A stretch of 64,000 nt of DNA from a virus (lineage: Duplodnaviria; Caudoviricetes): positions 908-64,907 of the IMG/VR virus record IMGVR_UViG_3300029914_000023; one strand, 5' to 3'. A program made the translations under genes and the position numbers. The first letter of the stretch is position 1; every line of letters starts with the position of its first letter. The notes beneath the pieces were generated by a model. The model was not told the origin of the DNA, ran no database searches, and saw nothing but the letters and a program-made list of their open reading frames with translations. Below, piece by piece: positions 6,478 to 60,746 of the stretch.

Positions 6478-6565
6478 CAAGTTACTGATTCTATGAACTT
6501 TGTAGCTATACCCATTTTGAGGGATTAACCCCGCCAGGCTACTAACCCCTCCCACGGATTATCGA

Positions 6566-10294: not shown

Positions 10295-10312
10295 CCCCTC
10301 CCAGAGGACTGC

Positions 10313-11280: not shown

Positions 11281-12618
11281 ATGGCAGGCGAATTCGTAAG
11301 TAATCCATTGGTGGCTTCCATCGGCGCTCATCTAGGACTCGGTGGACTGCTGGGCAGCGGCACAGAAGCGGCTACCCAGACAGCCGTCCCTACTCAGATT
11401 ACTCCGCCCAAGAGCGGCGCAACGATGGCCACTATGCGGGATGAGCGGCTGCAAGAGAACCTGTCACGTCCCAAGACCGTTGCACGAGCGGCGAGTACGA
11501 GGGGTTCTCAGCCTGGTGCTGTACCCAATATGCCAGGGATGATGGACTCCTCCACTCTGATGAATCCGGCGGTTCAAGCTATTCTCAGCCAGTATGGCCA
11601 GTCTCCGGAAAGTATTCAGCATACTGTGCAGAACGCAAGCCCCGATCTATTCATTACGAACCCGGCTGCTCACGCTAATCACCCAGTTCTATCTGGTATG
11701 GTGGAGCGAGCACTCGAAGGTCTGGCGTTTACCCACGGTGGCAACACGGTCGGCGAGAGCCTGAGCAACATCGCTCAAGGTATGCTGACAGCCCAGCAAG
11801 CTCGGGCAGAGAAGTACAACAACCAGTTGATGATGCCGTTCGCGCAAGCGCAGCAAGTGGCTAACCTGCAAGGGACCAGCCTGCATCAACAGTATGAGGA
11901 CGCTGAAGCAAAGCGGGCGAACGCCCAGGCTGAGATGTACAATCAAATGCCTGCCTATCGCCAAGGTCTGCTGGACTTGAGGACTCAACAGGAGTCAGAC
12001 AAGTCGTCTTATCAGGCTGGGATGAACCACCTGAAGTTGCAGCTTGACCCTCGGTTCAGCGCGATGAGTCCTGAGCACAGCACGGCTTTCCAATCGGCTA
12101 TCCAAGAGGCTGGCGGGTTGGGTAAGCTGTCAGACGAGGACATCGAGAAGTGGGCACAGATCGGAGTAGCCGATAAGCAGGCTGCTGAGACTGCCGCCAA
12201 GCTCAAGGTCAAGGGTGCGCCGAGTGGTGCAACCGGTGGCCGTGGACGCGGTGGAGTGGCTTCTGGGAAGACCCCCGAAGCGGCTGAGTATTCGGCGGCT
12301 GGGAAAGACCTTGGTGCCTTTGATAAACGGTACCCGTTCCTGTTTGACTCCCAAGCAACTACAGTGCCGGACCCCGATGCAAAGGGTAGCGTTATTATGC
12401 GCGGTGGAACTCGATGGAAAGAGCTTTTGGCGAAACGAACAGAGAAAGATGCTCGTGGGCAGAAAGCAAAAGCCGCTTATGAAGCGCAGCAACAAGGAAT
12501 GGCTATCCCCGGTAGTGGGATGACCAACCAAGATGGGGGTGGTGCTCGTCCAGCGCCAGTCGGCTACCGTGATCCAGCCTCCGGCCTAACCAAACAAGCA
12601 GATGGGACTTGGAAGTAA
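11281..12618 (+). CDS. Putative DNA ejection / internal virion protein
   Basis: A/Q-rich helical protein; position. Confidence 0.55.
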   Translation: MAGEFVSNPLVASIGAHLGLGGLLGSGTEAATQTAVPTQITPPKSGATMATMRDERLQENLSRPKTVARAASTRGSQPGAVPNMPGMMDSSTLMNPAVQAILSQYGQSPESIQHTVQNASPDLFITNPAAHANHPVLSGMVERALEGLAFTHGGNTVGESLSNIAQGMLTAQQARAEKYNNQLMMPFAQAQQVANLQGTSLHQQYEDAEAKRANAQAEMYNQMPAYRQGLLDLRTQQESDKSSYQAGMNHLKLQLDPRFSAMSPEHSTAFQSAIQEAGGLGKLSDEDIEKWAQIGVADKQAAETAAKLKVKGAPSGATGGRGRGGVASGKTPEAAEYSAAGKDLGAFDKRYPFLFDSQATTVPDPDAKGSVIMRGGTRWKELLAKRTEKDARGQKAKAAYEAQQQGMAIPGSGMTNQDGGGARPAPVGYRDPASGLTKQADGTWK

Positions 12619-15600
12619 TGCCTAAATATACTGATCTACCCTCCACTAACGGACCGCAGTACACGGACCTTCCGTCCTCTGGAGGGCCTCAGTACACTGA
12701 TCTACCGCAGGCCGCACCCCAAAAACCCGCTGCCACGGGCGCTGGTCCCCACAATGCCACAGTCAGCGCCTACACTCCCGGCTTCTGGGAGTCGGCACGC
12801 AACATGATTTTCAATACGTCGGTTGGCGATGCCATCCGTCGGAACGTGCCTATTGCACCCGACTGGATGAAGTCGCACCTGAATCCCCAGACCGAAGACG
12901 CCGAGCGTCAGCACGGTCAGACTCTCTCCTTCGAGGAGATGGGTCGCTGGGGTCAGAGCGGTGCTGAACGTCCTTCTGGTCCACGTCAAGCTACAACTCG
13001 TGTTCTTCAGGCAGCTAGTGGTTTCACTACTCCCGGTATGATGCTCGGAGCAGCTATGCTCGGGCCTGCCGCAGAAGTTGTTGCTGGCGCGACTCCCGTT
13101 ATTGCTCCAGTTGCTGAGCACGCCATACCTCTTGCATTTACTGGAATGGCTGCTTATGGAGCAGGAAAGGGGGTTGTCAATGAAGCTCAGTACGGAGAGG
13201 CCTATCTAAAGGCAAAAGGTCTTCTCGAAGAAGCTCAGCAAAAGGGTGATACTGATCGAGCCGATGAGATTCAGAAATACCTTACCCACCTTCACGACGC
13301 AATGTGGCAGACGGGCGGAGATGTTGCGGCGAACGCGGCGATGGCCTATCTGGGCCGTCGGGGTCTGCCGGAAATGATTAAGGGATTTAAGGGCGAGGGG
13401 AAGTTTATTGGCCCGCGCGTAGACCCCGCAGATCACGCTTACTGGGAGGGAATGATTCCGGGAAGCTTGCGTAGTCAGTGGGCAGCGGGAAATACAGAGG
13501 CTACCCCGCAAACCGCAAGGAATCCTTGGGGTAATCTCACCAAAGGGTCCGGTCCAGGAATGCCGCCACCCCCAAACGTCCCACCGATTATAAATCCTCA
13601 GCAGTTGAATCTGCCGCTTGTAAGGAACTTAATCCCCGATCCACCGGCCCAGGGATCGTTCGACTTCTCGCAGCTACCCGAACAACGGCTCGCAGCGCGT
13701 GGTCCCGAAGTAGAAGCCAACGGGCAGCTAAGGCTGTTCCCGAACGAGCCTCGCCAGATGGAGCTACGCCCAGAAGAGCGGCCAGCGGGTGTACCGGAAG
13801 GTCCCTCGGCGCAGACCGCATTCCAGTTCCCCGAGAATCCGTGGCAGATGCCACTAGACTTCAACCAGCCCGCACCGAAGGCACGTCCGGCAGAACCGGT
13901 TGCGCCCAAGGTCGAGCCACAGGCGGAGACTGCCCAGACTAACCCCGCTGAGGCAGCACCCCACCAGGCTACAAACCCCTCCCCCGAAACGGAGCCGACT
14001 GCCAAGCCGACCCTGAAGAAGAGAGGGAATGTCGCACAAGCGAAGTTGCTAGAAAATAGTGTTCTTCGGCCTATTATTCAGACTGTACAGAAGTTGGTTG
14101 CGCTGCATCAGGCTGGAGAGGATCGGATGCACGTTGATCGTGCAGTCCGAGCATCTACGCAAAGTCTGTTTACGCAGGCGGACCTCGACGAGTTTCGTAA
14201 AGTCGATCCTAACTTTACAATTCCCCGCACTGCGGACAGGCCCTTTCTTGATACGACGACTTCTTTTGATAACTTAGATGCTTCTGAACAGCAGACTGTA
14301 CGAACTGTTGCGAAGCATCTTGGTATCGAACCGGAAGACCTTCAGCAGGAAAATGGCGAATGGCGCATCTCTGACGATCAGCTTCACAAACTGGACGCGA
14401 TGCTGGAGGACGGAAAGAAGCCAACTTCCAGCGGAGAAATTGCCCCTCTTGCCCGAATTGATGCGGGGAATGCTGCTGTTGCTGGTCTGAAGAACAGTCG
14501 GAGTTTGCGGGAGCTAATGACTCCCGAAGCGAAGGCCGCGCTTGAAGCCGAAGAAGCAGCAACTCCTACTCGGGCTACTCCGGAAGATTCTATGGCTTCT
14601 GTGGTTGCGGGAGACCTTGATCCGCAAACTAGAGACGCCATAAAAGTTAGTCAGGCGCAAACTTATGGGCTGTCTGATGCGAACCTTTTGGGTCTCACGG
14701 AAGATAACCCGGCTCTTTACGAGGCGCGTCTACGCGGACTTCAGGGAGTCTTACAGGCTGCTATCGATCGTGGGGTGCAAGCACTACGTGAACGCATTCC
14801 TGAATGGGAACAAAAGCGCAGTGGAACATCTAAGCCCAGTTCTCTAGCTCAAGAAGTTGATGCACTGCCGGACGCCGTTAAAGCGCAGTTGCCGAAGGAA
14901 CTCTATGACCCGAAACATACTGGAGCCTCGCCCGGCGACACCGCCGAGACCGGCAACGTTCAAGAACCCGTTCAAGGAGCCACGGCAACCGAGACGGCAC
15001 CAGCCGCCCAAGCCGCCACTCAGCCTACGAACGCGAAAGGTACAGGCTCCAACCTTGTAGAGAAAGTACATTCTCTGGCGCAATCTCTCCGCGAACAGCA
15101 CGGAGATCAGGTAGCAGGAGCGCTGTCTAAGATATGGGGTGCGATTAAAGAGAAGTATTCCGACCCCGATTCGATTGCCAAAATCGTACATCGAGCACTA
15201 CTTCATTATCAGAAGAATCTTCAGAGCGGAATTGAGAATCCTCTCGATTCTACTTTAGCGGCTATCGAAAGGATGCCGGGAGAATCTGGTGCTCAAACTA
15301 CACTGCATTCCAATCCGTTGGGTGAAGTATGGGATCGGGCGATGAAACTTGAAGCTCCAATCGGAGCAGAAATGCCCCCTGGTTTGGAGCCGCATCCGCT
15401 AGAACATCCTATTGATTCTTTGATGGATGGCTTGGGTACTCCAAAGAGTCGCACAGTCTTTCAGCGAATTGGGAATTGGGTATCTTCGGAAGTTCTGAAA
15501 GCAACACGTATTGCTCGTGCTCTGACTCCTGACTTGGAAGGACAATGGGCGGCTGCTAAGATTGGCTTTGATAAAATACGAGATGCCCTAAAGAATCCCC

Positions 15601-18653: not shown

Positions 18654-18686
18654 GTCTAAAATATGGGAGGGGTTTTAAGCCTGGTG

Positions 18687-18950
18687 TTATGCACCTGGTC
18701 CGTATGGCCCCTTCTTCGCTTCCTTCTCTAGGAGAGTTCGTCTGAGCTTCTCCAGAGCTTTGGCGTTCTTACCCTTGATTAGTTTGTAAGCATTCTTCCA
18801 AGCCTTCTTGGGATGCTGCCCGGTCGCAATGACCGGACTCATCTCAGTGGGCCAGAAGATGCAGAACCCTTGTAGCGCATTGTAGCCTGTACAACCAGCT
18901 TCCGGAAATGCGTCCCGGACCTCCTGCATCATTTCACGTAGGTCTGGCAT
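18687..18950 (-). CDS. Hypothetical protein downstream of recombinase
   Basis: GAGG SD; overlaps recombinase stop. Confidence 0.55.
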   Translation of the reverse strand: MPDLREMMQEVRDAFPEAGCTGYNALQGFCIFWPTEMSPVIATGQHPKKAWKNAYKLIKGKNAKALEKLRRTLLEKEAKKGPYGPGA

Positions 18951-19800
18951 CGCGGTATTCCTCGGGGACCGGAAGCCGATTCACGGCGTCTCGGGTTGTT
19001 TGACTGTCGGCGGGTGTGAGGTACTTGCTCGTCGTAGATATGTTTTTATGTCCAAGCAAATCCTGCACGAGTTTGAGATCGGCTCCTGATCTAAGCAGGG
19101 TAGTAGCGAATGATCTTCGTGCCGTTCTAATTCCTCGCGGCTGTATGCCCGCCCTGCGGCAAATGGCATTCCAGTGGTAACGGATGCTGGCCGCGTCTTT
19201 CGCGTACCCTTCAAAGATTCGACCATCCGGAATATTCTCCACTGTCTTTATAACCCAAGCCGGAAGCGGAATCTCATGGTTCCGTCCAGTCTTCATTTTA
19301 GTCGCTGGTATCGATAAGCAAAGGCGTTCGTAATCTATATCGGATTTTTCCAGAGCCGCCAATGTCTCTCCCCTCAAGCCAGTATTCAGAGACAAAGCAA
19401 CCAAAATGTGATCCTGCGAAGAGAAGCAACCTTTTTGAAGGTCCATCTGTTCGGAAACACTTAAGGAGGTCTTCGGAGGTTCCTTCTCGCGCAGACGCTT
19501 GACTTGGGAGACCGGATTCCAGCATACCCTCTCCATTTGGAGGAGCCAGTTCCAGAATGCCCGGATGACTCCTAGTTCATAGTTTATGGTGCGAGGACTC
19601 ACTCCATCCCGAAGCCGCCAGATGCGGAAGTCTTCGACATCACGTCGAGTGAAGTCCTCTGGTTTAGTTCGGTCGGGGAAGCGAGAGAAGAAAGATGTAA
19701 GAGACTTGCAGTACCGCTCGGCAGTCCGCTGAGTTGTTGTCAGCGTGACGTAACGCTCGAACGATGCTTGCAGGTCGTGAAGTTCTGATCGCTTAACCAC
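18934..19800 (-). CDS. Tyrosine recombinase (XerC/D-like, with SAM-like N-terminal domain)
   Basis: TGLR (box I), KTG, RTARRSFAT (HxxR His replaced by Arg), LLGH...TSKY. Confidence 0.9.
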   Translation of the reverse strand: MVKRSELHDLQASFERYVTLTTTQRTAERYCKSLTSFFSRFPDRTKPEDFTRRDVEDFRIWRLRDGVSPRTINYELGVIRAFWNWLLQMERVCWNPVSQVKRLREKEPPKTSLSVSEQMDLQKGCFSSQDHILVALSLNTGLRGETLAALEKSDIDYERLCLSIPATKMKTGRNHEIPLPAWVIKTVENIPDGRIFEGYAKDAASIRYHWNAICRRAGIQPRGIRTARRSFATTLLRSGADLKLVQDLLGHKNISTTSKYLTPADSQTTRDAVNRLPVPEEYRDARPT

Positions 19801-19907
19801 CAGGCTGTAAACCCCTCCCTAGAAACGGCTTGCGCGTCCGCGAAGCCATCCGATGTTGTAGATGCCCCATGCAATGAGGATGAGTCCGGGTGTGATTAGA
19901 ATTTCCA

Positions 19908-25660: not shown

Positions 25661-25931
25661 TGTAGAACCTGAGTCCTGACTTGTCCAGTGGAATCAGTTC
25701 GCCGTCCTCAACCATCTCTTGCACGAGGTCGCGCACTTCCACGTAAGGATAGTCAGGATGCCTACGCAGAAAGGGAGCGAGAAGGAACTGTCCTTCAGGG
25801 TCGATACTGAACTTTATCTCTGATCGAAGCGGCATCAATCCTCCGAATGTTGGGAGGGGTTTTAAGCCTGGTGTACCTGGCTAATGTAGTTCAGTCCAGC
25901 GCACACACCAGGCCGTAACCCCTCCAAGGGA

Positions 25932-28242: not shown

Positions 28243-28460
28243 TTCAGAAAAGGGGGTCTGTGGTGGTGATTCGCTGTTGGGGCAAGTGGCACCAGGCACC
28301 ATGTCGCAAACCCCTCAGCAAGCGTTGCATGGATTTATTAACCACTCTATAACCAAAAGCTTACAATCACCAGGCCACAAACCCCTCAATCCACTCGCCC
28401 GGATCAGTTTACATCACTGCAAACCCGCAGACAAGTGGAATGGTTTATTTCCCTTTGACA

Positions 28461-33252: not shown

Positions 33253-33582
33253 TTATCGGCCCTCCGTGGGAGGGGTTTTACGCCTGGTGTTGCCGTTCAC
33301 CCACCGCACAGCATCCCGGTATTCCCGGTCAGCCATCGGGTTCTGAATCCGCAACTCCCGTAGATTTCCCGCCCCGTCACCAATGCTCTTTCGCATGGTC
33401 TGATACAGGAAGACGATGCGCTTCCGCCATCCACCTTCCGGCATCTTCAGGTTGCGCAGGGTGATACCGAAGTGGCCCTGCTTCTGGTAATACTCGTAGG
33501 ACGAAACCAGCTTGTAAAAGGCGGCTGGTCCTATGAAGATCGCTGTCCCCGTACTCAGGACGAAGTGCCGCTTGATACCCAT
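33253..33582 (-). CDS. Hypothetical protein
   Basis: GGAGGAG SD; lies within an inverted motif pair. Confidence 0.55.
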   Translation of the reverse strand: MGIKRHFVLSTGTAIFIGPAAFYKLVSSYEYYQKQGHFGITLRNLKMPEGGWRKRIVFLYQTMRKSIGDGAGNLRELRIQNPMADREYRDAVRWVNGNTRRKTPPTEGR

Positions 33583-34099
33583 GAACTCCTCCGATTGTTT
33601 CAGGGCCTGGTAACTAGAAGACCCACTAGATCAGCGACTGCCACGCCTCAGCGGACAGATACGCCTTTACACCAGGCCCCAAACCCCTCGATCAGAACGT
33701 CACTGCACTAATTAGCACAGCGGATGCCAGCCAGTACAGACTGTGCCGGATGTCCCCGGCGAATCCGTAGCGGAGTGAAGCCGCCGCGCTCAGGGCTATC
33801 ATGCAGCACGGAAAGAACTTATCGCTCAGAAGTAACATTCGTGTCCTCACTCCCACTTCTTTCAATCGAGACAACAGGAGAGGTACTGATGAGCCGGTAG
33901 GTTGCGCCCTCGATATACGGAGGCGCTGTGATGTTAACACGGCATCCCACTTCGATCTCGCTGACATAGATGAAAGGCCCGCTGGTAGACCGAAGGTCGA
34001 AGGTTCCGTCGTTGTCGTGTCCGGCTTCCAGTTGGGTCCAAGTCTTGTTGTCATAGTCGATCTCGTAGGTGCTCTCGTGCTCAGTCTTGAAGACAGTCT

Positions 34100-39072: not shown

Positions 39073-39089
39073 CTCGTCTCCTAATCCTG

Positions 39090-39690: not shown

Positions 39691-39696
39691 CCAATC

Positions 39697-41342: not shown

Positions 41343-42289
41343 TGAACTATCCTCCGAGGTATTCTTCTACGGGCATCTCGTCCACGTAGGTCAACGCTTC
41401 ATCCTGATACAGCAACTTCTCTGTACAGGTCGAACAATGAACAACCCCCGGCTGTGAGACACGGGGGTCGTCGAGTGGTGTTCCACATTTGGGACAAACA
41501 AGCGACACGGCCATACTACACCGCCATCGCAAGATCGTTAGCAAGCTGGCTCGCCAGAGCATACTTCGCCTGACTGAGCACCGCAGGGAGCCGCTCCGGG
41601 TCCAATCCGCCCTTCAACAGCGACTGACCGTAGTGTTCCACGAGCTTTGCCAGCAACTCTTCGATTTTCATATCGTGCTCCTTCGGCCCCATAGAGGGGT
41701 TTATAGCCTGGTGGAGTGTTGTGTCATGCCCCACAACGCTCAGGAAATCCGTCAGCGCCGCACCCCTGAAGCAACTGACGGTAAAGGAGGATCACACCAG
41801 GCTATAAACCCCTCCCTAGTTGGGAGAGGTCTCGGCTTCCACGAACTCCGGCTCAGGAACATAGTTATGGTTGGGAGTACGAAACTCTCCGCACTCGCAA
41901 CATTCGCCTTCTGTATCCCAGCAGGCACAATGACGATGGCAGTCCCGAGGGGTATCAGGTTCCTCTGAGTCCAGAAGAACTCTGATCGCTTCCTCCGGAT
42001 TTTCCGGAAACGGACCGTACATCTGGTAGCTCCTTGAACTTGTAGTAGAGATGCCGCTTTTCGTGCGTAATCTCTTCACAATTGCGTTCAATCCAGTCCA
42101 TCGCGTGCATACTAACGATAGCAAGATCAACAAGGTACTCACAGGTCAGCACGTCGAGGGAGGTAAGGGGATGGAACAAGTTCGTATCGTCCCGGTCCTG
42201 TCTCGACACGTTGAAGAGGACATAACCCCATAAATTCGGGGTTAGGTCGATCCGTACAATAGAAGACTGAAAGTGGGCTATAGAACGAC

Positions 42290-43639
42290 TCATGCCAGTT
42301 CTCCGAAGGCGTGTTCGTAGGCAGTGATGTAGTCAACAACGGCTTCACTCCAACCATCAATGTGATGGTAGTCGCCGTAGCAGACCCCGTTCTGGTAAGA
42401 AGCCACGTTGATGACGTAGCCCTTCTTGCCTTTACCCGGAGCGGGGACTGCCGTGTGCGACTGCTCGTCCGTGATGATGATAAGACGGTCGAAGCCTTCG
42501 GTCTTGGCAATGGTCACAGCGCGATCTGTGTTGGTCCCGCCACTGTGCCCGGAGTTCTTGATCGCATCCGCCAGAGCAAAGCCCCGACGCGGACGGATAA
42601 GACCCGCCGTCGAACCGAAGACAACCAATTGAACCTCTTCGCAGATTTCGCGCAGCAGCATGGCCAATCCTACCGCCGCATCGACACGCTGAAGTTCCGA
42701 CTTCATTGAAACCGGGCAACACATACTGCCCGAGTTGTCCACGCACAGCACAGTCTTCCCCGGCAGCTTCGGATGCCCCTGCAAGCAGGAGAACATCGCA
42801 GCTTCCAGTTCCGGCTCCAGCTTCGGAGCGTACCGTGCAGCCGTGATAAAGCGAAACGGAAGGACGCGCTCAGTGTTCATCGTCTTCAGGCCGTCACGGA
42901 TGGCCTCCATCGGAACACCAGCTTCCGTCATATTCCGCAAGTTGCGCAGCAGAGCCAACGCTCCGAGCTTCTTCTCCGCAAGGAGCCGCTCGAAGGTGCC
43001 CTTCTTGTCGGCACCACCCGAAAGCTGGACTTCCCATGTGTCTGGGGTTGTCAGCTTCCCGTCGATGAGCCGCTTCCAGAGCGCGTCCTGCTCGTCCCCC
43101 TTCGGTTTCGCATGGATAAGGAACAGCACATCGCGCAGTTTGATAGCGTCTCCCTGCCGGTCATACTTGGCCAGAGAGAATTCGTCGAACTTGCCAAACG
43201 CTCGCGCCAGACCCTTCTTCATCTGGTTCGGGAGCATCTTCTTGCCGCCCACCCAGAACAGGGAGATAAGCTCACCCAGTTCATCGGGACGGCCAATCGT
43301 GCGATAGATTGCATCCGAAAGGACCGCACGAGTCTCCTTCGTGTTGGCCCGTGCCAACGTAGCCAGCAGCCACAGCGGTGCATGGCGCAGCTTCATCGTG
43401 AAGCGAGCTTCGGTTGCCAGATCAGCCACGATCTTCTCCCCGTCCTTGCGCTTCAGAAGCTCCGCGACCTCGTGCATCATCCGGTCGGCAACGGAGATAC
43501 CATCCTCGTAGAAGGTATCCTCGAACAACATGCACGCCATAACAGTCCGGCGCAGTTGGTGGTAGGCGTCAATTCGGTCCGCTTTCGCACCTTCATGAGT
43601 GAAGATGGGCGGCTTCGCAATAGCGATGTTCGTTCGCAT
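42290..43639 (-). CDS. rsr: Ro60/Rsr TROVE-domain RNA-binding protein with vWA domain
   Basis: THEG...FEDTFYE...LAKY...TWE..LS...ALLRNLRNM...LPFRF...VDNSGSM...GGT...IITDEQ...GWSE; AAGGAG SD before ATG 43639. Confidence 0.92.
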   Translation of the reverse strand: MRTNIAIAKPPIFTHEGAKADRIDAYHQLRRTVMACMLFEDTFYEDGISVADRMMHEVAELLKRKDGEKIVADLATEARFTMKLRHAPLWLLATLARANTKETRAVLSDAIYRTIGRPDELGELISLFWVGGKKMLPNQMKKGLARAFGKFDEFSLAKYDRQGDAIKLRDVLFLIHAKPKGDEQDALWKRLIDGKLTTPDTWEVQLSGGADKKGTFERLLAEKKLGALALLRNLRNMTEAGVPMEAIRDGLKTMNTERVLPFRFITAARYAPKLEPELEAAMFSCLQGHPKLPGKTVLCVDNSGSMCCPVSMKSELQRVDAAVGLAMLLREICEEVQLVVFGSTAGLIRPRRGFALADAIKNSGHSGGTNTDRAVTIAKTEGFDRLIIITDEQSHTAVPAPGKGKKGYVINVASYQNGVCYGDYHHIDGWSEAVVDYITAYEHAFGELA

Positions 43640-43835
43640 AACGAGTCTCCTTGTTAATTGTTGACGTGAGAGGGGTTTACAGCCTGGTGCTTGGGAGTCG
43701 GGAATACCAAAGCCGTTCCTCGTATTCCTGCCGTCGTTTAAGACTCGCCGTAACGGACAGAGAGTCTCCCAAGTGCGAGTCACCAAGATTCCAATGACTG
43801 CCAGTTCGCGGGACCCACCAGGCTGTAAACCCCTC

Positions 43836-44318
43836 CTACTTCTTCGGTCTGCCCACCAGCACCAAGTTTTTGCCAGTCATACGGAGAGTGAATTGCTCTA
43901 CCGTATGCGTAGGTTGGGCCAGACGCAGAAGATGTTGAATCCACGGTGTGAACGTCCTTGTGCCGTTGTACATCACAGCGTCGGGCTTCACACAGCATGG
44001 GCACACCACGAATGGAACCTTGTTCCTCGCGGCGTACATAATGATGTGGTCGGTTGCCTCGTCCGGGTGCATCCCCAAGACGAGCGAGTACCGATCCATG
44101 CAATCAAACTTGAAGTAACCCCACTTCTGTCCGGGGCGACCCTTGGACAACCGGTGCCGTTTATCAATGACGGTCACATGCCGGAAGCCGTGTTCATACA
44201 AGGCCATGCGGAGGTAGCCTTTACCACCTGCAACGTCGGCGACCTTGGCTTGTACATGCTGGGGGAACTGGGAGGCTACCAACTTAGCCATCAAATCGAA
44301 ACGTCGGCGGTCTCCCAT
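43836..44318 (-). CDS. SAM-dependent methyltransferase
   Basis: VADVAGGKG motif I; GMHPDEAT...VCPCC; GGAGG SD. Confidence 0.75.
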   Translation of the reverse strand: MGDRRRFDLMAKLVASQFPQHVQAKVADVAGGKGYLRMALYEHGFRHVTVIDKRHRLSKGRPGQKWGYFKFDCMDRYSLVLGMHPDEATDHIIMYAARNKVPFVVCPCCVKPDAVMYNGTRTFTPWIQHLLRLAQPTHTVEQFTLRMTGKNLVLVGRPKK

Positions 44319-44333
44319 ACTTCCTCCTGATTC

Positions 44334-44475
44334 ATTGGGTGGAACAGGCGTAGCAGTAACGTAGCGCTTTGCCAATTAAGCTACAGTCCCCATTGATTTT
44401 GGGGGGACCGACAGGACTCGAACCTGCAATCTCTCTATTAACAGTAGAAGTAACTGCCACTATCACCAACCCAAT
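44334..44475 (-). ncRNA. YrlA-like Y RNA containing a circularly permuted tRNA domain
   Basis: Terminal stem AUUGGGU/ACCCAAU plus GUGGCAGU/ACUGCUAC encloses an anticodon-like arm, T arm (GCAGG-UUCGAGU-CCUGU), loop-closed acceptor stem (CGGUCCCC/GGGGACUG) and D arm. Confidence 0.85.
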
Positions 44476-44479
44476 CTCT

Positions 44480-44565
44480 TTCCGGTGGAATAAGCGCAAC
44501 GGTACATTTTTTGTCCTGGGTTAGAGGACATTTTTCAGAAGTAACCGTTACTTCACCAACCGGAA
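44480..44565 (-). ncRNA. Y-RNA-like ncRNA 2
   Basis: Same bipartite terminal stem and GUUACUUC motif. Confidence 0.75.
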
Positions 44566-44624
44566 TCCTGTTACCTCGGCATCCCACTTCTGCTGATGGG
44601 GTGTCATGGTTGCACCAGAAGTCA

Positions 44625-44697
44625 TGAGCGGAGAACTGGCGATGCGGCACGTTTTATCGCCCAATGATGAAGTAACCGCATCTTTCACTACCGCTCA
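44625..44697 (-). ncRNA. Y-RNA-like ncRNA 3
   Basis: UGAGCGG/CCGCUCA and GAUGCGGU/GCCGCAUC stems; UAGUGA / GUUCU internal loop. Confidence 0.8.
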
Positions 44698-44702
44698 ACT
44701 CG

Positions 44703-45074
44703 TTACAGGGCCTCGACCAGAACGCGAACGGTCCTGCCCGTGTTGTGATTCTTGACGCGCTGGATTGTGTCCTTGGCCTGATTGGTTGCCCGTTTCAGGT
44801 TGTCCACGTTGACGGTCAACGCGCGGAAGTCGGTTCCAGGGAGCTTTTTGCCCCAGGTCTTGCCAAGGGGAGCGCCCCCGAGTGTGAAGCCTGCTGCCTT
44901 GAGGGGCAGCGCCGATGTGCGGACCAGCAATGTGAGCGCACGGTGAGTCGGGGCATTGGCGGCGGCGAGGATAAAGTCATTGTTTGCCTTCGCTTCCTTC
45001 CCTACACGAACGGCGAATTCGTCGTTCACGGTGGTTGTGAATCCGTAAGCGCCAGGTGCTTTACGTTTGCACAT
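44703..45074 (-). CDS. Hypothetical basic protein inside the Y RNA array
   Basis: AAAGGAG SD before ATG 45074. Confidence 0.55.
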   Translation of the reverse strand: MCKRKAPGAYGFTTTVNDEFAVRVGKEAKANNDFILAAANAPTHRALTLLVRTSALPLKAAGFTLGGAPLGKTWGKKLPGTDFRALTVNVDNLKRATNQAKDTIQRVKNHNTGRTVRVLVEAL

Positions 45075-45096
45075 GGTATCTCCTTTGGGTTCAATC

Positions 45097-45167
45097 ATTC
45101 CGAGAGAACAAACGCTGCGGTCGTTTTTCATTGCGAGTGAAGTAACCGCAACTACACTACCCAGAAT
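45097..45167 (-). ncRNA. Y-RNA-like ncRNA 4
   Basis: AUUCUGGG/CUCGGAAU and GUUGCGGU/ACCGCAGC stems; same conserved loops. Confidence 0.8.
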
Positions 45168-45172
45168 CTTTA

Positions 45173-45260
45173 TGCCGGAGAACAGGCGGAACAGTTGCCC
45201 CCAGCCGAAGCTGGGATTTTCGCCAAATGAAAGAAGTAACTGTTCCTATCACTACCGGCA
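45173..45260 (-). ncRNA. Y-RNA-like ncRNA 5
   Basis: UGCCGG/CCGGCA and GGAACAGUU/AACUGUUCC stems; extra UUCG tetraloop hairpin. Confidence 0.8.
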
Positions 45261-46069
45261 AGCTCGTTATTTGCAGGTGAACTGTGTCTTACAACGGGGG
45301 CAGATCACCTGCTGTGCCTTCCCACGCGCCGAAACGGTGATGGGAGGATTGTCATTCGGTTTGTCCCGCTGGCAGGAGGGACAGTACGCCACCCAGTGAT
45401 GTCCGGGCTTGATGTTCTTCGGGTTCTTCGCAGTTGCCATGATGTCTCCTTAAAGCGGTGGGTGCTTTCATCCGTTAGGAAGTGGCGAGAGTCAGCCTCA
45501 GCACCCATAATCTTCACACCCCTCTAGGGCCTTATCGCCCTAGAAGCTATTCCCCAAACAGCGAGGTCGGTTCCCGTCATTAGCGGGGCCTAGAGGGGGC
45601 AAACCTTACCAGAGGCACTTTGAGCCACAACTAAGGCCACGAAACATCCACAGTCCAAGTGACGGCACCAAAGGCTTGGTTCGGTTTGGGGACTCAAACC
45701 TTTTTGTGGGCCACATGCCAGTCGGGGCAGTAGCGACAAGCATACGCTACCATCTCCTCTTCTGGATGCAGCTTCTTGAGTGCTCGAATGTGGGCCTCAG
45801 CCGCTCCCTTGCTTCGGTGAGGATGCTTCCGAGCGCAAGAATGCTTCATATCGCGGTAGAGCAGCAGTCGGCCTACACTCATTACAGGCCCCGCTTCTTC
45901 AGCGCATCCTTCTTCTTACGCTTAAGAGCGCGATATGCTTCCTTCTCCTGCTGCGGGGTGTCGAACTGCTTCCCCGTTCTCTTGCGATCACGCTTGGCAG
46001 CGGCTTTGGTGCCGTACCGACGACGAGCAGCTTTCCCTGTTGCGGTTGCCATGTTGTCTCCTCCAAACT

Positions 46070-46144
46070 TGGGGTGTACGGCAGGGGTCGAACCTGCATG
46101 ATCGAGTGCCACAGACTCGCGCCTTACCGGTCGGCCACGCACAC
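46070..46144 (-). tRNA. tRNA-His(GTG)
   Basis: Loop CT-GTG-GC; GGTTCGAC T-loop; C73 and CCA. Confidence 0.9.
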
Positions 46145-46403
46145 TTAAAGGGTGATCTTGATCTCCGTACCCTTCGTAACTCTCTCGAATCCATGTGTGG
46201 ACATGAATCCATTCTCGCCGCAACCCCGAATCGTCCCCTCTTTAAGGTTGAAAGTCACAAAAGACGTAGGGCCAGTCCGAACAATAATGGTCTCGGAGTC
46301 GTCGATGTCGGAGTGGGAGCGTACTGCTTCTCCCACTCGCAAGTCCTTCAGATGAGCCACCGGAACAGGACCGGTACTACATGTGATCTGCATGATACTC
46401 CTT

Positions 46404-47579
46404 TTACGAAGGATCATCGTCATTGTCCCTGTACGACGGATTGAGGAGCTTCACGATCAACGGTGTCCCGTTCTCCGTGAACTTCAGTTCCTCGTGCCGA
46501 AGTACAACGCCCTTACGGATATGCAGCGCCTTGCCGCTCACCGTCTCGTCTCCGCTACGCAGCGGAAGAATCGTGTTGAGATCATACTTGCCCTGATAAA
46601 TCAGCGGCACCCAGTTCGGGAAATAGGTATGATACCCTGCATCAGTACCGTTCATGATAACGCGAAAGGTCAGCACGGTCACATGATCCTTACCGTAACT
46701 GTATCCCTTCTGGAACGGAATGACTTCACCGAACACTTGGAACTCCGTGTCCGAATCCTTGGGCCAGTTGCTCAAGTATCCAATGATGCCGGAGTTGTAC
46801 GCTGCCTGCCAATACATATTACGAGCAGGCTTGATGCCCTTGGCCTTGCGGATCAGCCAGTGAATGAGGTTGCGAACCCGTGTGGTGAACTTACGGCCAT
46901 ACCACCACGGATCGGCCAGAATCTCCTCAATCACAAAGCCGCGCTCCGATGCGCCCTTGGACGAAACTGTGATAACGTCGTTGCGGTCACGAGCAATGCA
47001 AATCTGCGAGCCATGAATCTTCTCCGTCACCGTAACGATGTCGTCCGGCTTGAAGTAGGACTCGAAGATGCGGAACTGCTCCACATCGTGCGTATAGAAT
47101 GTCTTGAACGAAGACACAGACTCACGCGGCACCCAACCAGTCGCCGCACCACGTCCACGTCCGTCGCGCTGGACTGCAAGCTCGGGGAAATACTCCGTAA
47201 TCCCCAGCAGCCCCGAAATGTCCTCACCCAACTGCCATTCCCAAGCATCATGCTCGTTGAACAGGCTGTCGAGCTTGTCTCCCACCCAGTCAGAGGGCAA
47301 CACAACGCCCTCGCTGAGTTCACCGCGTAGCCGAATGCTGCGTACACGGTTCGCTTCGGGTCCACCCAGATAAGATGCTCCGTTCGGACCCACATAGAGC
47401 TTGGCTAAGTCTGGCGGAAGAATGCTCCTCTTCGGCGCAAAGACGATAATCTCTCCACTCTTGTACTCGTTACGACCCACCACAACCTGATAGTCTCCGA
47501 GTTTTCCAAGAGCCAGCCGATCAGCGTTAGGGTGCGGGAATAGCTCAATCGCACTCGCAAATACCTTCCAATTACTCAT
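46404..47579 (-). CDS. RNA ligase, DRB0094/Rnl5 family
   Basis: N-terminal OB domain (HPNADRL...RLRGELSEG); TEKIHGS, VFGEV, KGVV, VKLLNPSY. Confidence 0.85.
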   Translation of the reverse strand: MSNWKVFASAIELFPHPNADRLALGKLGDYQVVVGRNEYKSGEIIVFAPKRSILPPDLAKLYVGPNGASYLGGPEANRVRSIRLRGELSEGVVLPSDWVGDKLDSLFNEHDAWEWQLGEDISGLLGITEYFPELAVQRDGRGRGAATGWVPRESVSSFKTFYTHDVEQFRIFESYFKPDDIVTVTEKIHGSQICIARDRNDVITVSSKGASERGFVIEEILADPWWYGRKFTTRVRNLIHWLIRKAKGIKPARNMYWQAAYNSGIIGYLSNWPKDSDTEFQVFGEVIPFQKGYSYGKDHVTVLTFRVIMNGTDAGYHTYFPNWVPLIYQGKYDLNTILPLRSGDETVSGKALHIRKGVVLRHEELKFTENGTPLIVKLLNPSYRDNDDDPS

Positions 47580-47987
47580 GATTGAATAGCTCCAACGGAA
47601 GTTCTCCCGCCGTATTCAAGTGATTCACGACTTACTCTTTTACTAATTTGAAATTGCCCCACTCTGGAGTGTCGTTGTGAGTTGTGAGTGTCTTTTGTGA
47701 TGCCCCAGTGGTGCGGTCGCGCTGATCGATGATGATGAAGAACCTATCGCTTTGCCAGATGTATTCCCACCATCCAGAAACAGTGCGTTTACCGTTAGTC
47801 CACCGGGCTTTGTGCATTCGGTCTGTTCGCGGTCTAAACATCATCTCACCAAGCCCCAACGAGTTGCACCCTCAGAAGGAGAATAGCAGATCATCCATTG
47901 TTCCTTCCGACGCGGCTTACCCACTCGACGCCCGGCAAGTACATCTTCAATCTGCCACTCAACCTTAGATCTGTTATTGAAACATGC

Positions 47988-48404
47988 TTACCCTGTAGTC
48001 TCCGCAGCCCACTTCGCAGACTTCGCAGCATACTTCGCAGCAGCCTCCGCAGCAGACTCCGCATACTCCGCAGCAGCCTTCGCAGCAGCCTCCGCAGCAT
48101 ACTCCGCATACTCCGCAGCACGCTTCGCACGCTCCGCAGTCTCCGCAGCCTCCGTAGTCTCCGCAGCCCACTTCGCAGACTTCGCAGCATACTTCGCAGC
48201 AGCCTCCGCATACTTCGCAGCATACTCCGCATACTCCGCAGCACGCTTCGCACGCTCCGCAGTCTCCGCAGCCTCCGTAGCCTCCGCAGCCCACTTCGCA
48301 GACTTCGCAGCATACTTCGCAGCATACTCCGCATACTCCGCAGCACGCTTCGCACGCTCCGCAGTCTCCGCAGCCTTCACACGCTCCGTAGTAGATTCTG
48401 CCAT
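47988..48404 (-). CDS. Ala/Glu/Tyr/Lys tandem-repeat protein
   Basis: GAAGGAGG SD; about three repeats of AAETAERAKRAAEYAEYAA...KYAAKSAKW. Confidence 0.6.
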   Translation of the reverse strand: MAESTTERVKAAETAERAKRAAEYAEYAAKYAAKSAKWAAEATEAAETAERAKRAAEYAEYAAKYAEAAAKYAAKSAKWAAETTEAAETAERAKRAAEYAEYAAEAAAKAAAEYAESAAEAAAKYAAKSAKWAAETTG

Positions 48405-48784
48405 AATGTGCCTCCTTCAGCTACAAACTTAACGTGTGGAGCAGGCTGGTTTGCCTGCATCTTCATTCTCCCCAGCAGCCCTATCCTTATCAGATAAGGG
48501 CAACAGGATACGACCAGTCCCGCCGCAGCGAGAGCAGGTATAGACGTGACACTTCTCACGCAGATCAGCGTTCACATACCGACGCAGCAGCTTGCCCTTG
48601 CCAGAGCAAGCCAAACAAACTGTTAAGGGCATGGTGCGCCTCCGACGAGGGGTTATAAGCCTGGTGGAGCGGCTTGGTGGAGACAGACCAGCGGCTCAGT
48701 AGCGTGAAAGGAGGTCACAAAGCGCTACTCCCATACACCAGGCTTATAACCCCTCCCACCCATTCTTCAAGTAGGTTTTACACA

Positions 48785-50821: not shown

Positions 50822-50841
50822 AGTCTGTTACCGCGTGTGTG

Positions 50842-51240: not shown

Positions 51241-52174
51241 TAGGGTTACTGGCCAGTCTCGATGAGATACTGGCAGTAGTCAAAGAGCGTTTCAAGGTAA
51301 CGCTCTGTCTCCGAGCTAATTGCAGTATGACTCTGCGATAAGCTCACTAATGCGCCAAACATGCCCTTGAGCATTCTTACATCATGCGACTCTGTTGAGA
51401 CATAGACTCGCATGTAAGCTAACTTGTCGGCGTCCAACGTGTCTCCTCTAGCAACTTTCCCGGCGTCCTATGCCTGTTACAGCTTTCCGTGTGTTCTGGA
51501 AGGGTGCGCCGCTTGGGGTTGCTTGCCGGTCGAGCCGATCGGCGACTTGCAAAACCCCGAAAAAATCCGGTGACCGGCGCTAAGTGGCAATTTTTTCAAC
51601 GACTTACGACGAATCGGGGCGAAAATTCGGCGAAAATTTTCTTGCGAATGGCACACGCGCAGTAGCTCCACCACGTGTCAGAGTGTCAAGTAAACTTTAC
51701 ATACACTCTAAAAAACACTGTCTGTAGCCTATTGATTCTAAAGGTATTTACGGTGAATGCTACATTCACGCTACAGCCAACACGCGCGATATAACGCACA
51801 CACACTAGCACGCTAAAAAACGCGCTATGTTATACATTCCGCGCGGTTTACGCGCACATCCCACGCGCACATCCCACGCCCGCCCGCGCGATTAAAGGCT
51901 TCCGCACGCGGGTTCAGAGTCTAACTAGGGTCCCATCTGCCAATACTGATTTTTCAAATTTAGGTTTTATTACTGTTCTATCTTATTGATTACAAAGAAC
52001 ATAGAGGGCAGAAGGGGGTCGGCTTTTTGACCCCCTGAAAGCCCTGTAACTGGTTTCAAATCTTTAATATGCGATTCTGCGTATAGAATTTTTAATTTTT
52101 AGAATTCTCTGGGAGGGGTTTATAGCCTGGTGTGGGTCATCTAGCCAGTTTATTTTAGTTTTTTACATTTCGGG

Positions 52175-56048: not shown

Positions 56049-56159
56049 TTTAACCCGCGAGGGGCGGGCAGCCACCAGGCTATAAACCCCTCCCATATGA
56101 CAGCCGTGGACTACAGGCTGACAAGTTGCGCTTAACGCAGCTTGACATGAGGAAAACAC

Positions 56160-60361: not shown

Positions 60362-60746
60362 TTGGTTACGCAAAATTACCAGGCCACAAACCCCTCCCCC
60401 GTGGCAAGTTGTAGAACTTGAAAAGCCAATCCCGGTGCAGCGTGAAGATGACGCTGCGGCTATTGCCTCCTTAAAGGGGCATCCGGGAATTGACGCACTC
60501 CTAAACAGACTTCGCTTGCAGCAAGCCGTTCTGGAGACGAAACTTAGAACGACTCGTTATAAGGAGTTGGCTGATGTATATTTGGATCAGTCTGGTTTGT
60601 TTGGGCTTAGGGTTGCTCAACTTGAGATCGCTGCCGCAACACAGAATCTCGACGAAAAGCATAAGCCCCGTAAAGCTACCTTCAACGAAATAGAACAGTT
60701 CGAAAAAATCAGAGCATCCATCGAATCGGTGAGACCCACTGAATGA
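60351..60746 (+). CDS. Hypothetical protein after portal
   Basis: Usual position between portal and scaffold. Confidence 0.55.
   Translation: MAFNWLRKITRPQTPPPWQVVELEKPIPVQREDDAAAIASLKGHPGIDALLNRLRLQQAVLETKLRTTRYKELADVYLDQSGLFGLRVAQLEIAAATQNLDEKHKPRKATFNEIEQFEKIRASIESVRPTE

Follow-up and report, generated by a model that had tools for sequence, protein, structure and literature searches.

Candidate palindromic intergenic elements with conserved arms and replaceable cargo in an uncultured peat phage

The paired repeats of an uncultured peat phage look like a lineage-specific palindromic intergenic family of its phage group, a phage version of repeats known from bacteria. In the reading that we favor, with a probability of about 0.4, each unit is a palindromic element of the REP/Correia/ESAS kind that would form a 20-26-bp clamp in the transcript, likely serve as an RNase III substrate, and mark seams of genome mosaicism. 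The window, which is the entire 64-kb stretch of DNA analyzed, represents a complete 64.9-kb SU10/phiEco32-like phage.

A 20-nt motif recurs in pairs and alone around the genome

The arms of the units are copies of a conserved 20-nt motif, GAGGGGTTnnnnGCCTGGTG, which is asymmetric and not self-complementary. Scanning with the pattern GAGGGGTTTATAGCCTGGTG and allowing up to three mismatches gave 20 matches in the window against 0.01 expected, the mean of dinucleotide shuffles, and 20 copies were reached in 0/100 of these shuffles. Looser scans added degenerate copies at 25906(-), 28297(-), and 33593(+). The copies are spread around the whole genome as pairs and solo copies and are not confined to 41.7-48.8 kb. 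The following units are formed by pairs:

41694..41814, minus strand: clamp unit; arms 41694-41713/41795-41814, 20/20 complementary, 81-nt cargo
43670..43835, minus strand: clamp unit; arms 43670-43689/43816-43835, 20/20 complementary, 126-nt cargo
48647..48755, minus strand: clamp unit with 'type A' cargo; arms 48647-48666/48736-48755, 20/20 complementary, 69-nt cargo
25854..25925, minus strand: imperfect clamp unit; arms 25857-25874/25905-25922, 78% complementary, rank I14, 32-nt cargo
33593..33689, minus strand: degenerate clamp unit; arms 33592-33611/33671-33690, 75% complementary, rank I10, 57-nt cargo

Units 41694, 43670, and 48647 rank I3, I1, and I2 among 43 inverted repeats in the window, in agreement with a preliminary description of this DNA that had reported ~20-bp stems in the three larger units. 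The further pair that it placed near 25852-25926 is present but imperfect. The arm centers vary, with TTTATA in 41694, TTTACA in 43670, and TTATAA in 48647, and are complementary within each pair. Solo copies genome-wide and inside genes, three of them in coding sequence, form a wider pattern that was absent from that description. The remaining sites are as follows:

318..337, minus strand: solo copy in coding sequence, read as HQADNPS, within a linker of poor conservation
6532..6551, minus strand: solo copy, 14 nt upstream of the adaptor gene ATG
10281..10300, minus strand: solo copy, 17 nt from and upstream of the ATG at 10313
11499..11518, plus strand: solo copy in gene 11275-12618, kept in G002 (24834+)
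13962..13981, minus strand: solo copy in a 1875-aa gene, reading HQATNPS
18667..18686, plus strand: copy right after the last leftward gene's stop codon, partner of 19798
19798..19817, minus strand: copy over the GTG predicted to start the Xer-like recombinase gene
18934..19800, minus strand: gene for an Xer-like tyrosine recombinase, lying between the inverted copies at 18667 and 19798
28368..28387, minus strand: solo copy upstream of an AP2-HNH gene
33270..33289, plus strand: solo copy, 17 nt upstream of the ATG at 33252
52113..52132, plus strand: copy in a divergent control region, with conserved counterparts in G001 (16912+) and G002 (450+)
56073..56092, minus strand: copy after the terminase gene; CCCCUC pairs with an upstream GAGGGG remnant
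60377..60396, minus strand: copy after the portal gene; partner decayed

The 18667 and 19798 copies form 18/20 pairs by hand count and enclose the recombinase operon. The degenerate copy at 28297-28316 provides the SD and ATG of the AP2-HNH gene, and CCCUCC of the 33270 copy can pair with a downstream GGAGGG.

Units lie between genes and carry an oriented cargo

The 5' arm begins 0-8 nt after the upstream stop codon in 13/15 units, and the next start codon lies 14-43 nt past the 3' arm. In the window, stops precede the 5' arm by 1, 0, and 6 nt in units 41694, 43670, and 25854. Unit 41694 sits between a stop at 41816-41818 and an SD/ATG at 41673. The 5' arm of 43670 is abutted by the stop of ORF 43836-44375, and the ATG (43639) of the Ro60 gene (42290-43639, TROVE/vWA) lies 30 nt past its 3' arm, so that this unit directly precedes Ro60 as had been noted. 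Upstream of 48647 is a non-coding stretch with no gene, and its ATG (48632) follows the arm by 14 nt. An SD/ATG at 33582 follows unit 33593-33689, where the stem includes three wobble pairs that hold in sense RNA only. In the window, SD and ATG lie 14-30 nt past the 3' arm, in line with the earlier view that units end just before an SD. The notion of a standard cassette shell, reused in the gap from one stop codon to the following ribosome site, was supported.

Many units share a cargo layout, with a 5' unpaired stretch, hairpin 1, and hairpin 2 set against the 3' arm, and the inner hairpins named previously were recovered in minimum-energy folds. The cargo of 41694 contains two hairpins and an unpaired CCUCCUUU. 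The type A cargo of 48647 consists, 5' to 3', of UAUGGGA, a variable hairpin 1 with loop CCUCCUU, and hairpin 2, which has the conserved loop CUGUCUCC and adjoins the 3' arm. The plus strand carries AAAGGAGG at 41783-41790 and 48707-48714, the two units in which it had been seen. Folding of the cargo alone had no clear advantage over shuffles, with z of -1.60, 0.06, -1.03, and -1.44 in sense and -2.72, -0.50, -2.92, and +0.78 in antisense; sense signals were weak, and antisense was stronger for two units.

Cargo orientation is locked to transcription: with units oriented by gene context, the CUGAR junction occurred in sense in 12/15 and in antisense in 2/15. Wobble pairs in the L051 stem likewise keep pairing only in sense RNA. 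This fixed orientation speaks against the earlier suggestion of invertible units, and no strand-changing joint was found in contigs of four runs, although contigs drop rare forms.

Place, strand, and arm pairing are conserved while cargo turns over

Related phages carried 13 (G001), 8 (G002), 5 (G003), 5 (G007), 2 (G008), and 3 (G009) motif copies, compared to 0 for the reversed pattern used as a control. Copies occurred at the same place and on the same strand for 10/10 window sites in the covered part of G002 and for 6/7 in G001, both related IMG/VR phages whose flanking proteins are only ~30-85% identical to those of the window. Unit 41694 has orthologues in G001 (6547-6669) and L045, and 48647 has homologues in G001 (9565-9659), L050, and L051. 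The 318 copy has counterparts in G002 (14951) and, as a 19-nt copy partly in another reading frame, in G001. G002 also keeps the 13962 copy (27363-) in a protein without detectable similarity around it.

The conserved arm spans 20 nt in the window and up to 24-26 nt in relatives. Arm centers covary in 3/3 perfect window pairs, both arms of the G001 pair 6547/6650 share a rare GGGG end, and outer flanks lengthen the stem by differing complements (CTAAC/GTTAG plus TACAC/GTGTA in one contig, ATATG/CATAT, and TGAC/GTCA). Two 'solo' window sites are full hairpins in relatives: 6532 in G002 and G009, and 60377 in G001, G002, and G003 (cargos of 14, 25, and 146 nt). The imperfect G001 pair 12030/12109 is wobble-compatible only in antisense. 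Covariation of arm centers and flanks, together with pairing of solo sites in relatives, indicates that the hairpin is under selection.

Within one genome, motif copies were more alike than copies at orthologous sites. TTTTGGG occurs in 6/8 copies of G002, whose two coding copies share 12 more nt, and flanks are genome-specific, with TGAC in G001 and G002 and TGG in the window. Such likeness suggests a DNA-level process, either copy-paste or gene conversion.

The earlier view of the cargos as unrelated needs correction, given the common layout and the CUGAR junction. Cargo conservation was mixed. At the 41694 locus, identity among orthologues in three phages was at chance. Type A cargos of four phages had double-sided changes in 8/29 pairs, identities of 0.61-0.67 where the 95th percentile of shuffles was 0.53-0.57, and the loop GUCUCC in 4/4 with compensatory stems. 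L053 and L054 have identical arms and flanks identical at 392/396 and 391/396 positions, while their cargos match at 34/60. Whole units also come and go. L046 has a unit where window genes abut, near 39072; L047 and the window are near-identical as far as a stop, after which L047 has a unit and a different gene; unit 43670 is absent from the syntenic interval of G001, whose units 10896 and 12030 lack counterparts in the window; and lake strain X9 lacks 48428-48772, an ORF plus unit. As judged from these comparisons, the arms are the conserved part of the unit and the cargo is replaceable.

A transcript clamp as the favored reading

We propose that the conserved 20-nt arm would be the functional part, with the cargo a compact two-hairpin filler kept in one orientation. 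The element would be co-transcribed with its operon, and its arms would form a perfect 20-26-bp clamp from after the upstream stop to before the next start. Closing of the clamp would therefore loop out the insert and keep the stop and the next ribosome site near each other, with a possible effect on translation. RNase III cuts duplexes of the type that a perfect 20-26-bp stem would present in polycistronic mRNA, and the clamp may be a substrate of the host enzyme; the complete phage genome encodes no RNase III gene. As such a substrate, the element would serve as mRNA punctuation or insulation, separating cistrons and giving all downstream messages a common short leader (AACCCCUC plus SD). 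We consider that the units probably punctuate mRNA. The RNA contigs listed for X15 and X16 lie outside the units. At the DNA level, identical arms could act as seams for exchange of cargo and adjacent accessory genes between phages.

RNase III requires no particular sequence, so the strong arm conservation and the solo and in-gene copies are unexplained by the clamp model. Solo C-form copies also persist after loss of their partner, which pure pairing constraint does not predict. In phage T7, RNase III sites are intercistronic hairpins that separate messages in polycistronic mRNA. Those hairpins are ~60 nt long, contain an internal loop, and share no 20-nt sequence, whereas the units have a perfect duplex, a conserved sequence, and a branched cap.

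Alternative readings

It is rather unlikely that the units are selfish MITE/REPIN-like DNA elements, with arms that would be 20-26-bp terminal inverted repeats copied or homogenized by a recombinase, for which the Xer-like enzyme is the candidate, or by recombination between copies. RNA effects would then be incidental, and survivors would be insertions that spared neighbor expression. The recombinase gene does lie between 18667(+) and 19798(-), a bracket also found in G002; each '+' copy around the genome is followed by a '-' copy (8/8; P ~0.01 for random circular order); copies are homogenized within a genome, flanks included; and in-frame copies occupy protein linkers. Presence and absence among relatives, cargo replacement between 99%-identical strains, and conserved arms around cargo at chance identity at orthologous loci fit as well. 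However, copies at the same places in genomes with 30-85% identical proteins limit recent mobility, and the locked cargo orientation is unlike free insertion. Correia elements carry a TA target duplication; by comparison, none was seen for the phage units, in which a direct flank repeat was found by eye in 1/18 (L050, GAAGG), orientation is fixed, and RNase III cleavage is putative. The motif, read directly, differs from the inverted-arm core site of tyrosine recombinases, and the complete genome has no Y1/RAYT transposase. Among at least 121 genome-contig matches listed, none had a convincing inverted second copy, and only L103 had a second, poorly matching copy on the opposite strand.

We regard as improbable that each unit is a cassette for a trans-acting small RNA, cut from the mRNA at the clamp, whose CCUCCUU(U) loops would mimic the 16S 3' end and bind Shine-Dalgarno sequences. 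The unpaired anti-SD-like stretch of 41694, the CCUCCUU loop of 48647, the GUCUCC loop with its compensatory stems, the fixed cargo orientation, and a clamp that would be an RNase III site are consistent with such a product. Against it, the 41694-locus cargo is at chance identity in three phages, near-identical strains swap cargo, several sites hold only 14-35 nt, and CTCC recurs inconsistently; the anti-SD stretches might just as well act in cis on the SD of the following gene.

Similarly long odds apply to the 20-mer being bound, as double-stranded DNA, by a sequence-specific protein of the phage or its host, with pairs simply two sites. Proposed roles are a stoperator-like regulator site, a T5/phiKMV-type nicking site, or a promoter for a phage ECF sigma factor. 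An asymmetric motif with genome-specific flanks, ~20 copies across the genome, in-gene solo copies conserved at the nucleotide and not the protein level, and phage genes for two HNH proteins and a sigma factor of the ECF type suit this view. Two protein sites, though, need neither covariation of centers and outer flanks within pairs nor oriented cargo with compensatory stems, and the copies ignore gene direction (~9/21 antisense by hand count), unlike promoters or stoperators. A sigma-70 scan of 40.5-52.5 kb found 5 sites against 5.9 expected and none at units, and inspection by eye revealed no spacing of the ECF or sigma-54 type.

That the Ro60-adjacent unit is that protein's Y RNA is barely credible. 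In its favor are the position of 43670 immediately before Ro60 and its long terminal stem. However, Rfam models of YrlA and Y_RNA, searched down to E = 10, matched none of the units, and a separate YrlA-like RNA was located at 44336-44469(-); that match includes a T-arm and a D-arm and scores 30.6 bits (E 0.0014), short of the gathering score of 69. L041, another Ro60 phage, has 0 motif copies and a YrlA-like RNA ahead of its Ro60 gene, and arms occur genome-wide, also in G001, where tblastx found no match to Ro60 or RNA ligase in the syntenic interval. The same data give no support to any tie of the units to Ro60, or to the circularization by the phage ligase suggested in the preliminary description, given the four units of G001.

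Comparison with known repeats

REP/BIME/REPIN sequences are short repeats of conserved sequence that mostly lie downstream of coding regions, with some copies in genes; they often form close inverted dimers that fold as larger hairpins, and are thought to be transcribed and act as RNA elements (PMC3733652). The units resemble them in repeats after genes, inverted pairs, in-gene copies, and inverted copies flanking a recombinase-type gene. Each REP is a 20-40-bp palindrome tagged with GTAG or CGTC, the flanked gene is a RAYT, and the carrier is a chromosome (PMC3733652); here the 20-mer is not self-complementary, the flanked gene encodes an Xer-like tyrosine recombinase and no RAYT, and a 65-kb phage carries copies enclosing two-hairpin cargo of 14-146 nt. 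Correia elements of Neisseria are ~100-150 bp with 26-bp inverted ends and mostly conserved locations between strains, and are transcribed as stem-loops that RNase III binds or cuts, altering adjacent gene expression (PMC2649163). They have a conserved core, can create promoters, and bind IHF (PMC2649163), whereas the core of the phage units is variable.

The SAS/ESAS repeats of Cluster K mycobacteriophages are lineage-specific asymmetric motifs that closely precede start codons; different subclusters have them at the same genes with differing consensus, and about half have 17-bp inverted repeats with a variable spacer (ESAS) (PMC3203893). Both these and the window units are lineage-specific phage repeats; their sequences are unrelated, ESAS spacers are 4-13 bp (PMC3203893) compared to 14-146 nt of structured cargo, and ESAS lie only in the non-structural half (PMC3203893), whereas window copies also occur in the structural block and genes. 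PeSL of T4-type phages are small conserved non-coding cassettes between accessory genes in hyperplastic regions, and recombination between them shuffles modules (PMC2839356). A PeSL combines a sigma-70 early promoter with a terminator stem-loop (PMC2839356), whereas the units have no promoter match and a stem without a U-tract.

The units differ from integron attC sites: RYYYAAC/GTTRRRY boxes are absent, and the window stems have no extrahelical bases; as an integron integrase, the recombinase scored 63.8 bits, far below a cut-off of 265. attC sites are imperfect inverted repeats with a variable center, right after cassette ORFs, and the cassettes vary between strains. The likeness to the units lies in repeats that follow ORFs near a tyrosine recombinase.

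Inverted pairs of one motif lie between genes

The preliminary description reported short cargos enclosed by inverted motif pairs, and these pairs proved genuine. With up to three mismatches allowed, the motif GAGGGGTTTATAGCCTGGTG occurs 20 times in the window, against 0.01 copies expected, and the three principal units described are the top three inverted repeats of the whole window. Units 25854-25925 and 33593-33689 were recovered as weaker inverted repeats in the window-wide search. Five close inverted pairs are thus present in the window, and 19 distinct units over all sources. We name the units by first position, and refer to a single motif without a close partner as a solo copy.

Motif units and solo copies in the window
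25854-25925, minus strand: unit
33593-33689, minus strand: unit
41694-41814, minus strand: unit
43670-43835, minus strand: unit before Ro60
48647-48755, minus strand: unit
318, 6532, 10281, 11499, 13962, 18667, 19798, 28368, 33270, 52113, 56073, 60377: solo copies (motif scan)

The arms, which are terminal inverted repeats, measure 20-26 bp. Their stem is perfect over 20 bp in three window units and reaches 24-26 bp in relatives; the best inverted repeat of the window, I1 (unit 43670), extends to 27 nt at 89%. On direct reading, GAGGGGTTnnnnGCCTGGTG has no internal dyad. A search for nearby partners of the solo copies found mostly none above a random-position null. Solo copies 52113 and 56073 can pair over a long range at 20/20 positions, and 19798 with 18667 at 18/20, a pattern we rejected as a general rule because it is not general in G002, a related phage record.

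Scanning IMG/VR with an exact pattern (16 specified bases) returned 35 loci. The multi-copy records were G001 (13 copies), G002 (8), G003 (5), G007 (5), G008 (2) and G009 (3); among other records, G014 had two matches, G017 three (an exact pair and a 2-mismatch copy) and five a single match each. The reversed-pattern control gave 0 in every record. With a pattern of this size, single-match records were treated as chance; the G017 pair (locus L002) is a genuine unit.

The motif is genome-wide and old, and the family keeps its positions across phages with proteins diverged to 30-85% identity. Relatives G001, G002 and G003 share synteny with the window, their tblastx segments being ~30-88% identical. 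In G002, all 10 window sites within the covered part have a copy at the matching place and strand, the counterpart of site 13962 being placed by interpolation between anchors ~2.7 kb apart. G001 has matching copies at 6 of 7 window sites, the absent one being the unit before Ro60. Copies also appear homogenised within a genome, as TTTTGGG occurs in 6 of 8 G002 copies and two G002 coding copies share 12 more nt.

We provisionally rejected a host-borne multi-copy repeat: genome contigs gave at least 121 scattered matches, with no convincing inverted second copy among those listed. Locus L103, with a weak second copy on the opposite strand, is the sole such case among the genome-contig matches listed, which include at least nine from Acidobacteriota that look like chance or coding matches. 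The family was not found in the literature, in a search not designed to establish absence from print.

Arms are conserved and cargos are exchanged

The variable centre of the arms is also complementary in the three perfect pairs, and the two arms of G001 pair 6547/6650 have a rare GGGG end in common. In other phages, differing complementary flanks lengthen the stem outward. One metagenome contig has both CTAAC/GTTAG and TACAC/GTGTA, another lineage has ATATG/CATAT, and G001, G002 and locus L056 have TGAC/GTCA. Since TGAC is also found before solo copies in G001 and G002, it belongs to the motif there. The hairpin is, in short, under selection beyond its conserved letters.

The three larger cargos had been described as folding into further hairpins. 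Such inner hairpins are present in minimum-energy folds, but cargo folding energy was not clearly better than that of shuffles (z-scores -1.60 to 0.06 in sense, -2.92 to +0.78 in antisense). Conservation of the cargo also depended on the locus. At that of unit 41694 (window, G001 6547 and L045, matched by their flanks), cargo identity was 0.49-0.51, equal to the shuffle median, and 32-40 of 40 arm positions were identical. Loci L053 and L054 have flanks identical at 392/396 and 391/396 positions and the same arms, with cargos agreeing at only 34/60 aligned columns. One cargo type is kept in four phages (window 48647, G001 9565, L050 and L051), with identities of 0.61-0.67 vs a shuffle 95th percentile of 0.53-0.57. 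Here both sides have changed in 8 of 29 predicted pairs, hairpin 1 is different in all four, and the loop GUCUCC and junction UA(A)UGGG are common to them. The arms matter, then, and the cargo is replaceable.

With units oriented by gene context alone, CUGA(A/G) was present in the sense strand of 12/15 units vs the antisense strand of 2/15, a set that includes orthologues and represents ~11 independent loci by our own count. The sequence lies at the junction between two cargo hairpins. Wobble pairing is biased to the sense RNA in unit 33593-33689 (three pairs) and L051, and to the antisense in one pair of G001 12030/12109. Taken together, the fixed orientation and the wobble bias modestly support action at the transcript level and speak against free inversion. 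The earlier suggestion that the units are invertible found no support: contigs from four runs contained no strand-change joints, and L053 and L054 are not mutual inversions.

Units sit between stop codon and ribosome site and mark exchange seams

Two units were said to begin exactly at the upstream stop codon, and in 13 of 15 units a long ORF does stop 0-8 nt before the 5' arm; the exceptions are L050 and window unit 48647, which is preceded by non-coding sequence that includes a terminator-like hairpin. As also described, units end before the SD of the next gene, with SD and start codon 14-30 nt past the 3' arm (43 nt in L053/L054). Closing of the stem would leave a stop-to-ribosome-site distance about that of genes without an insert.

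Units differ in presence between related genomes. L046 has a unit at the place where the window's own genes abut (window ~39072), and the difference between filled and empty site is not a simple insertion. L047 is near-identical to the window until the stop of ORF 49831-50445, after which come a unit and an unrelated gene. G001 units 10896 and 12030 are without window counterpart, and lake strain X9 lacks 48428-48772 (small ORF and unit). The interval between units 41694 and 48647 spans 6.8 kb in the window (Ro60, YrlA-like RNA, tRNA-His, RNA ligase) and 2.9 kb in G001, with partly different genes.

Genes of the window referred to here
18934-19800, minus strand: Xer-like tyrosine recombinase
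32337-32993, minus strand: ECF-type sigma factor
42290-43639, minus strand: Ro60
46404-47579, minus strand: DRB0094-type RNA ligase

In the same region, a DNA contig from run X3 continues from 41095 to 49045 through 4 letters of other sequence; either it is chimeric or the strain lacks the 7.9-kb accessory block. An 18-nt inverted repeat unrelated to the motif (48821-48838/49037-49054, 94%) surrounds most of ORF 48947-49177. RNA contigs of two runs start precisely at 48822/48823, which probably reflects a break of the assembly at this repeat. None of the assembled RNA contigs listed spans a unit. Because the shared contig end at 48822/48823 coincides with the 18-nt repeat and the terminator-like hairpin, it is uninformative on processing.

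The unit before Ro60 was rejected as a Y RNA since the YrlA-like match lies elsewhere, at 44336-44469 (minus strand); no unit gave a covariance match to YrlA (RF02553), a family with a tRNA-like module and a Ro-binding stem, at E up to 10. The YrlA-like match scored 30.6 bits (E 0.0014) against a gathering score of 69 and has a T-arm, D-arm and GUUACU stem. It lies ~700 nt upstream from Ro60 and overlaps ORF 43836-44375 at its annotated start; an internal Met is probably the true start of that ORF. In L041, a locus of another phage with a 45% identical Ro60, a YrlA-like RNA (E 2e-4) lies upstream of Ro60, more repeated GUUACUU-containing stretches stand immediately upstream of the gene (positions 1-400), and no copy of the unit motif was found.

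Copies inside genes and decayed pairs

Sites 318, 11499 and 13962 are coding and located in P/A/Q/T-rich linkers. At 13962, the motif is present in G002 although the flanking protein has no detectable similarity, and the G001 counterpart of site 318 is a 19-nt copy partly read in a different frame; what is conserved is therefore the nucleotides and not the peptide. A degenerate stretch resembling the C-form (right-hand arm) lies 28 nt upstream of coding copy 13962, and over this double stretch (13925-13981) the 1875-aa protein repeats the peptide Q(A)TNP(S/A).

Solo sites are often decayed hairpins. At site 60377, the spacer of the pair measures 25 nt (G002), 14 nt (G001) or 146 nt (G003), and in the window the left arm survives only in decayed form. 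The pairs at site 6532 in G002 and G009 have spacers of 35 and 33 nt, respectively, and at site 56073 CCCCUC pairs with a GAGGG(G) retained upstream. The surviving half at decayed sites is the C-form arm.

Some copies touch on start codons. An ORF in G003 apparently begins at the arm GTG and continues through the 146-nt cargo; a mini-ORF from the arm GTG was rejected, as its length and stop are not conserved (by eye). The SD and ATG of an AP2-HNH endonuclease gene (27745-28302, minus strand) are supplied by a degenerate motif copy at 28297-28316 (GAGGGGTTTGCGACATGGTG); 51 nt upstream of that copy stands a full one.

Comparison with known element and RNA classes

Bacterial chromosomes are well known to carry repeat families of this type, which have seldom been described in phages, whose genome space is tight. 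The phage units resemble REPINs in forming a hairpin from two close inverted copies. However, a REP unit is a short imperfect palindrome and the phage motif is not palindromic, and the gene flanked by repeats is a RAYT in REP/REPIN systems and a Xer-like tyrosine recombinase here. The Y1 HUH transposase profile PF01797 had 0 matches in the complete phage genome, with control genomes positive, so a REP-with-RAYT identity was rejected. Like MITEs, the units have terminal inverted repeats and vary in presence between related genomes. MITEs are flanked by a target-site duplication, whereas flanks of the phage units are inverted or unrelated, with a direct 5-nt repeat at L050 only (1/18, by eye). 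A MITE also has a parent transposase gene with matching ends; the candidate here would be the recombinase operon, which inverted copies bracket in the window and G002, which keeps to one place and whose enzyme is of no known transposase type.

The core boxes R''/R' of integron attC sites read RYYYAAC...GTTRRRY. Arm ends GAGGGGTT...AACCCCTC have the opposite purine/pyrimidine polarity, and the recombinase scored 63.8 bits against integron integrase TIGR02249 (cut-off 265), its best match being XerA-like (99.3 vs a cut-off of 220). With the boxes absent and the recombinase far under integron cut-offs, attC identity was rejected.

At gathering score, Rfam matched only tRNAs in the window, and nothing matched at the units in 41600-48900 at E up to 10. 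A hammerhead ribozyme was rejected since its core does not fit CUGAR (by eye). PeSL-type cassettes carry a strong sigma-70 promoter beside the stem-loop, which the phage units lack: 40500-52500 contains five sigma-70 promoter-like sites vs 5.9 expected, with 0 at a unit. ECF and sigma-54 promoters at units were rejected on spacing (by eye). Published passages on related repeats cover SAS/ESAS repeats (PMC3203893), PeSL (PMC2839356), Correia elements (PMC2649163), MITEs in viruses (PMC11602168) and REP families (PMC3733652).

Interpretation

Our preferred reading, held tentatively at a probability of roughly 0.4, is a domesticated palindromic element that serves as an mRNA clamp, with its arms as recombination seams. 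The element would act in the mRNA, where the arms would form a clamp that is probably an RNase III site or insulator and that would hold translation of adjacent genes close together; the identical arms could double as recombination seams. RNase III processing sites have a duplex of at least about 20 bp, a length that three window units and units of relatives reach. No phage-encoded RNase III was found in the genome, so any cutting would be the host enzyme's.

An mRNA clamp leaves unexplained why the arm sequence is conserved and not just its pairing, why the C-form half outlasts its partner, and why copies occur within genes and are homogenised within a genome. These four features keep two rivals alive. 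The first, somewhat unlikely, is a selfish DNA-level element linked to the Xer-like recombinase; inverted motif copies bracket the operon of this enzyme in the window and in G002 alike. The second, that the motif is the site of a sequence-specific DNA-binding protein, is considerably less probable.

The strong form of the preliminary description, in which trans-acting RNAs are excised from the units, seems equally doubtful: anti-SD-like loops are real in the folds, but the cargo is too replaceable. We also regard as improbable an RNA-level cassette holder, in which exchangeable Y-shaped small RNAs within operons would be cleaved out at the conserved 20-26-bp duplex, with the arms read by a dedicated factor (as RNA or folded ssDNA), the cargo swapped at the arms as in an integron for non-coding RNA, and some cargos mimicking the 16S tail (anti-SD).

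Units fit between stop codons and ribosome sites with single-nucleotide precision, copies persist in coding linkers, and units mark exchange seams for accessory genes (Ro60, RNA ligase, small ORFs) as well as for the 50-nt cargo. Should the mRNA clamp serve as a signal for RNA processing or insulation, it would be a natural portable part that renders newly acquired genes expressible within an operon; should the Xer-like recombinase maintain the units, such a pairing of repeat family and tyrosine recombinase would be new. Either outcome would inform the organisation of phage mosaicism.

Genome of the phage

The window covers positions 908-64907 of a single record of 64,907 bp, which is graded complete by IMG/VR and whose two ends overlap by 127 nt. 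The window encodes a tailed-phage gene set (SU10-type portal and adaptor, T4-type terminase, family A DNA polymerase), three phiEco32-type COOH-NH2 ligases with an amidotransferase, and five tRNAs. Genes run rightward from 52.2 kb to 18.6 kb, via the record ends, and leftward from 51.2 to 18.7 kb. The closest terminase relatives are ~26% identical. Megablast returned no isolated near-identical phage, and a prophage/host search with the portal protein gave no match; the phage sequence was found again in peat, soil and lake metagenomes. The 'inverted terminal repeats' assigned to G002 by IMG/VR are 26 nt at the contig ends and presumably derive from something like a library-adapter oligo, which they resemble, a biological feature being improbable.

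The three COOH-NH2 ligase genes lie at 31127-41342 (minus strand) with a glutamine amidotransferase and a RimK-like gene, and a dATP/dGTP diphosphohydrolase, NT5C and three metallophosphoesterases are encoded elsewhere in the window, a set associated with hypermodified DNA bases.
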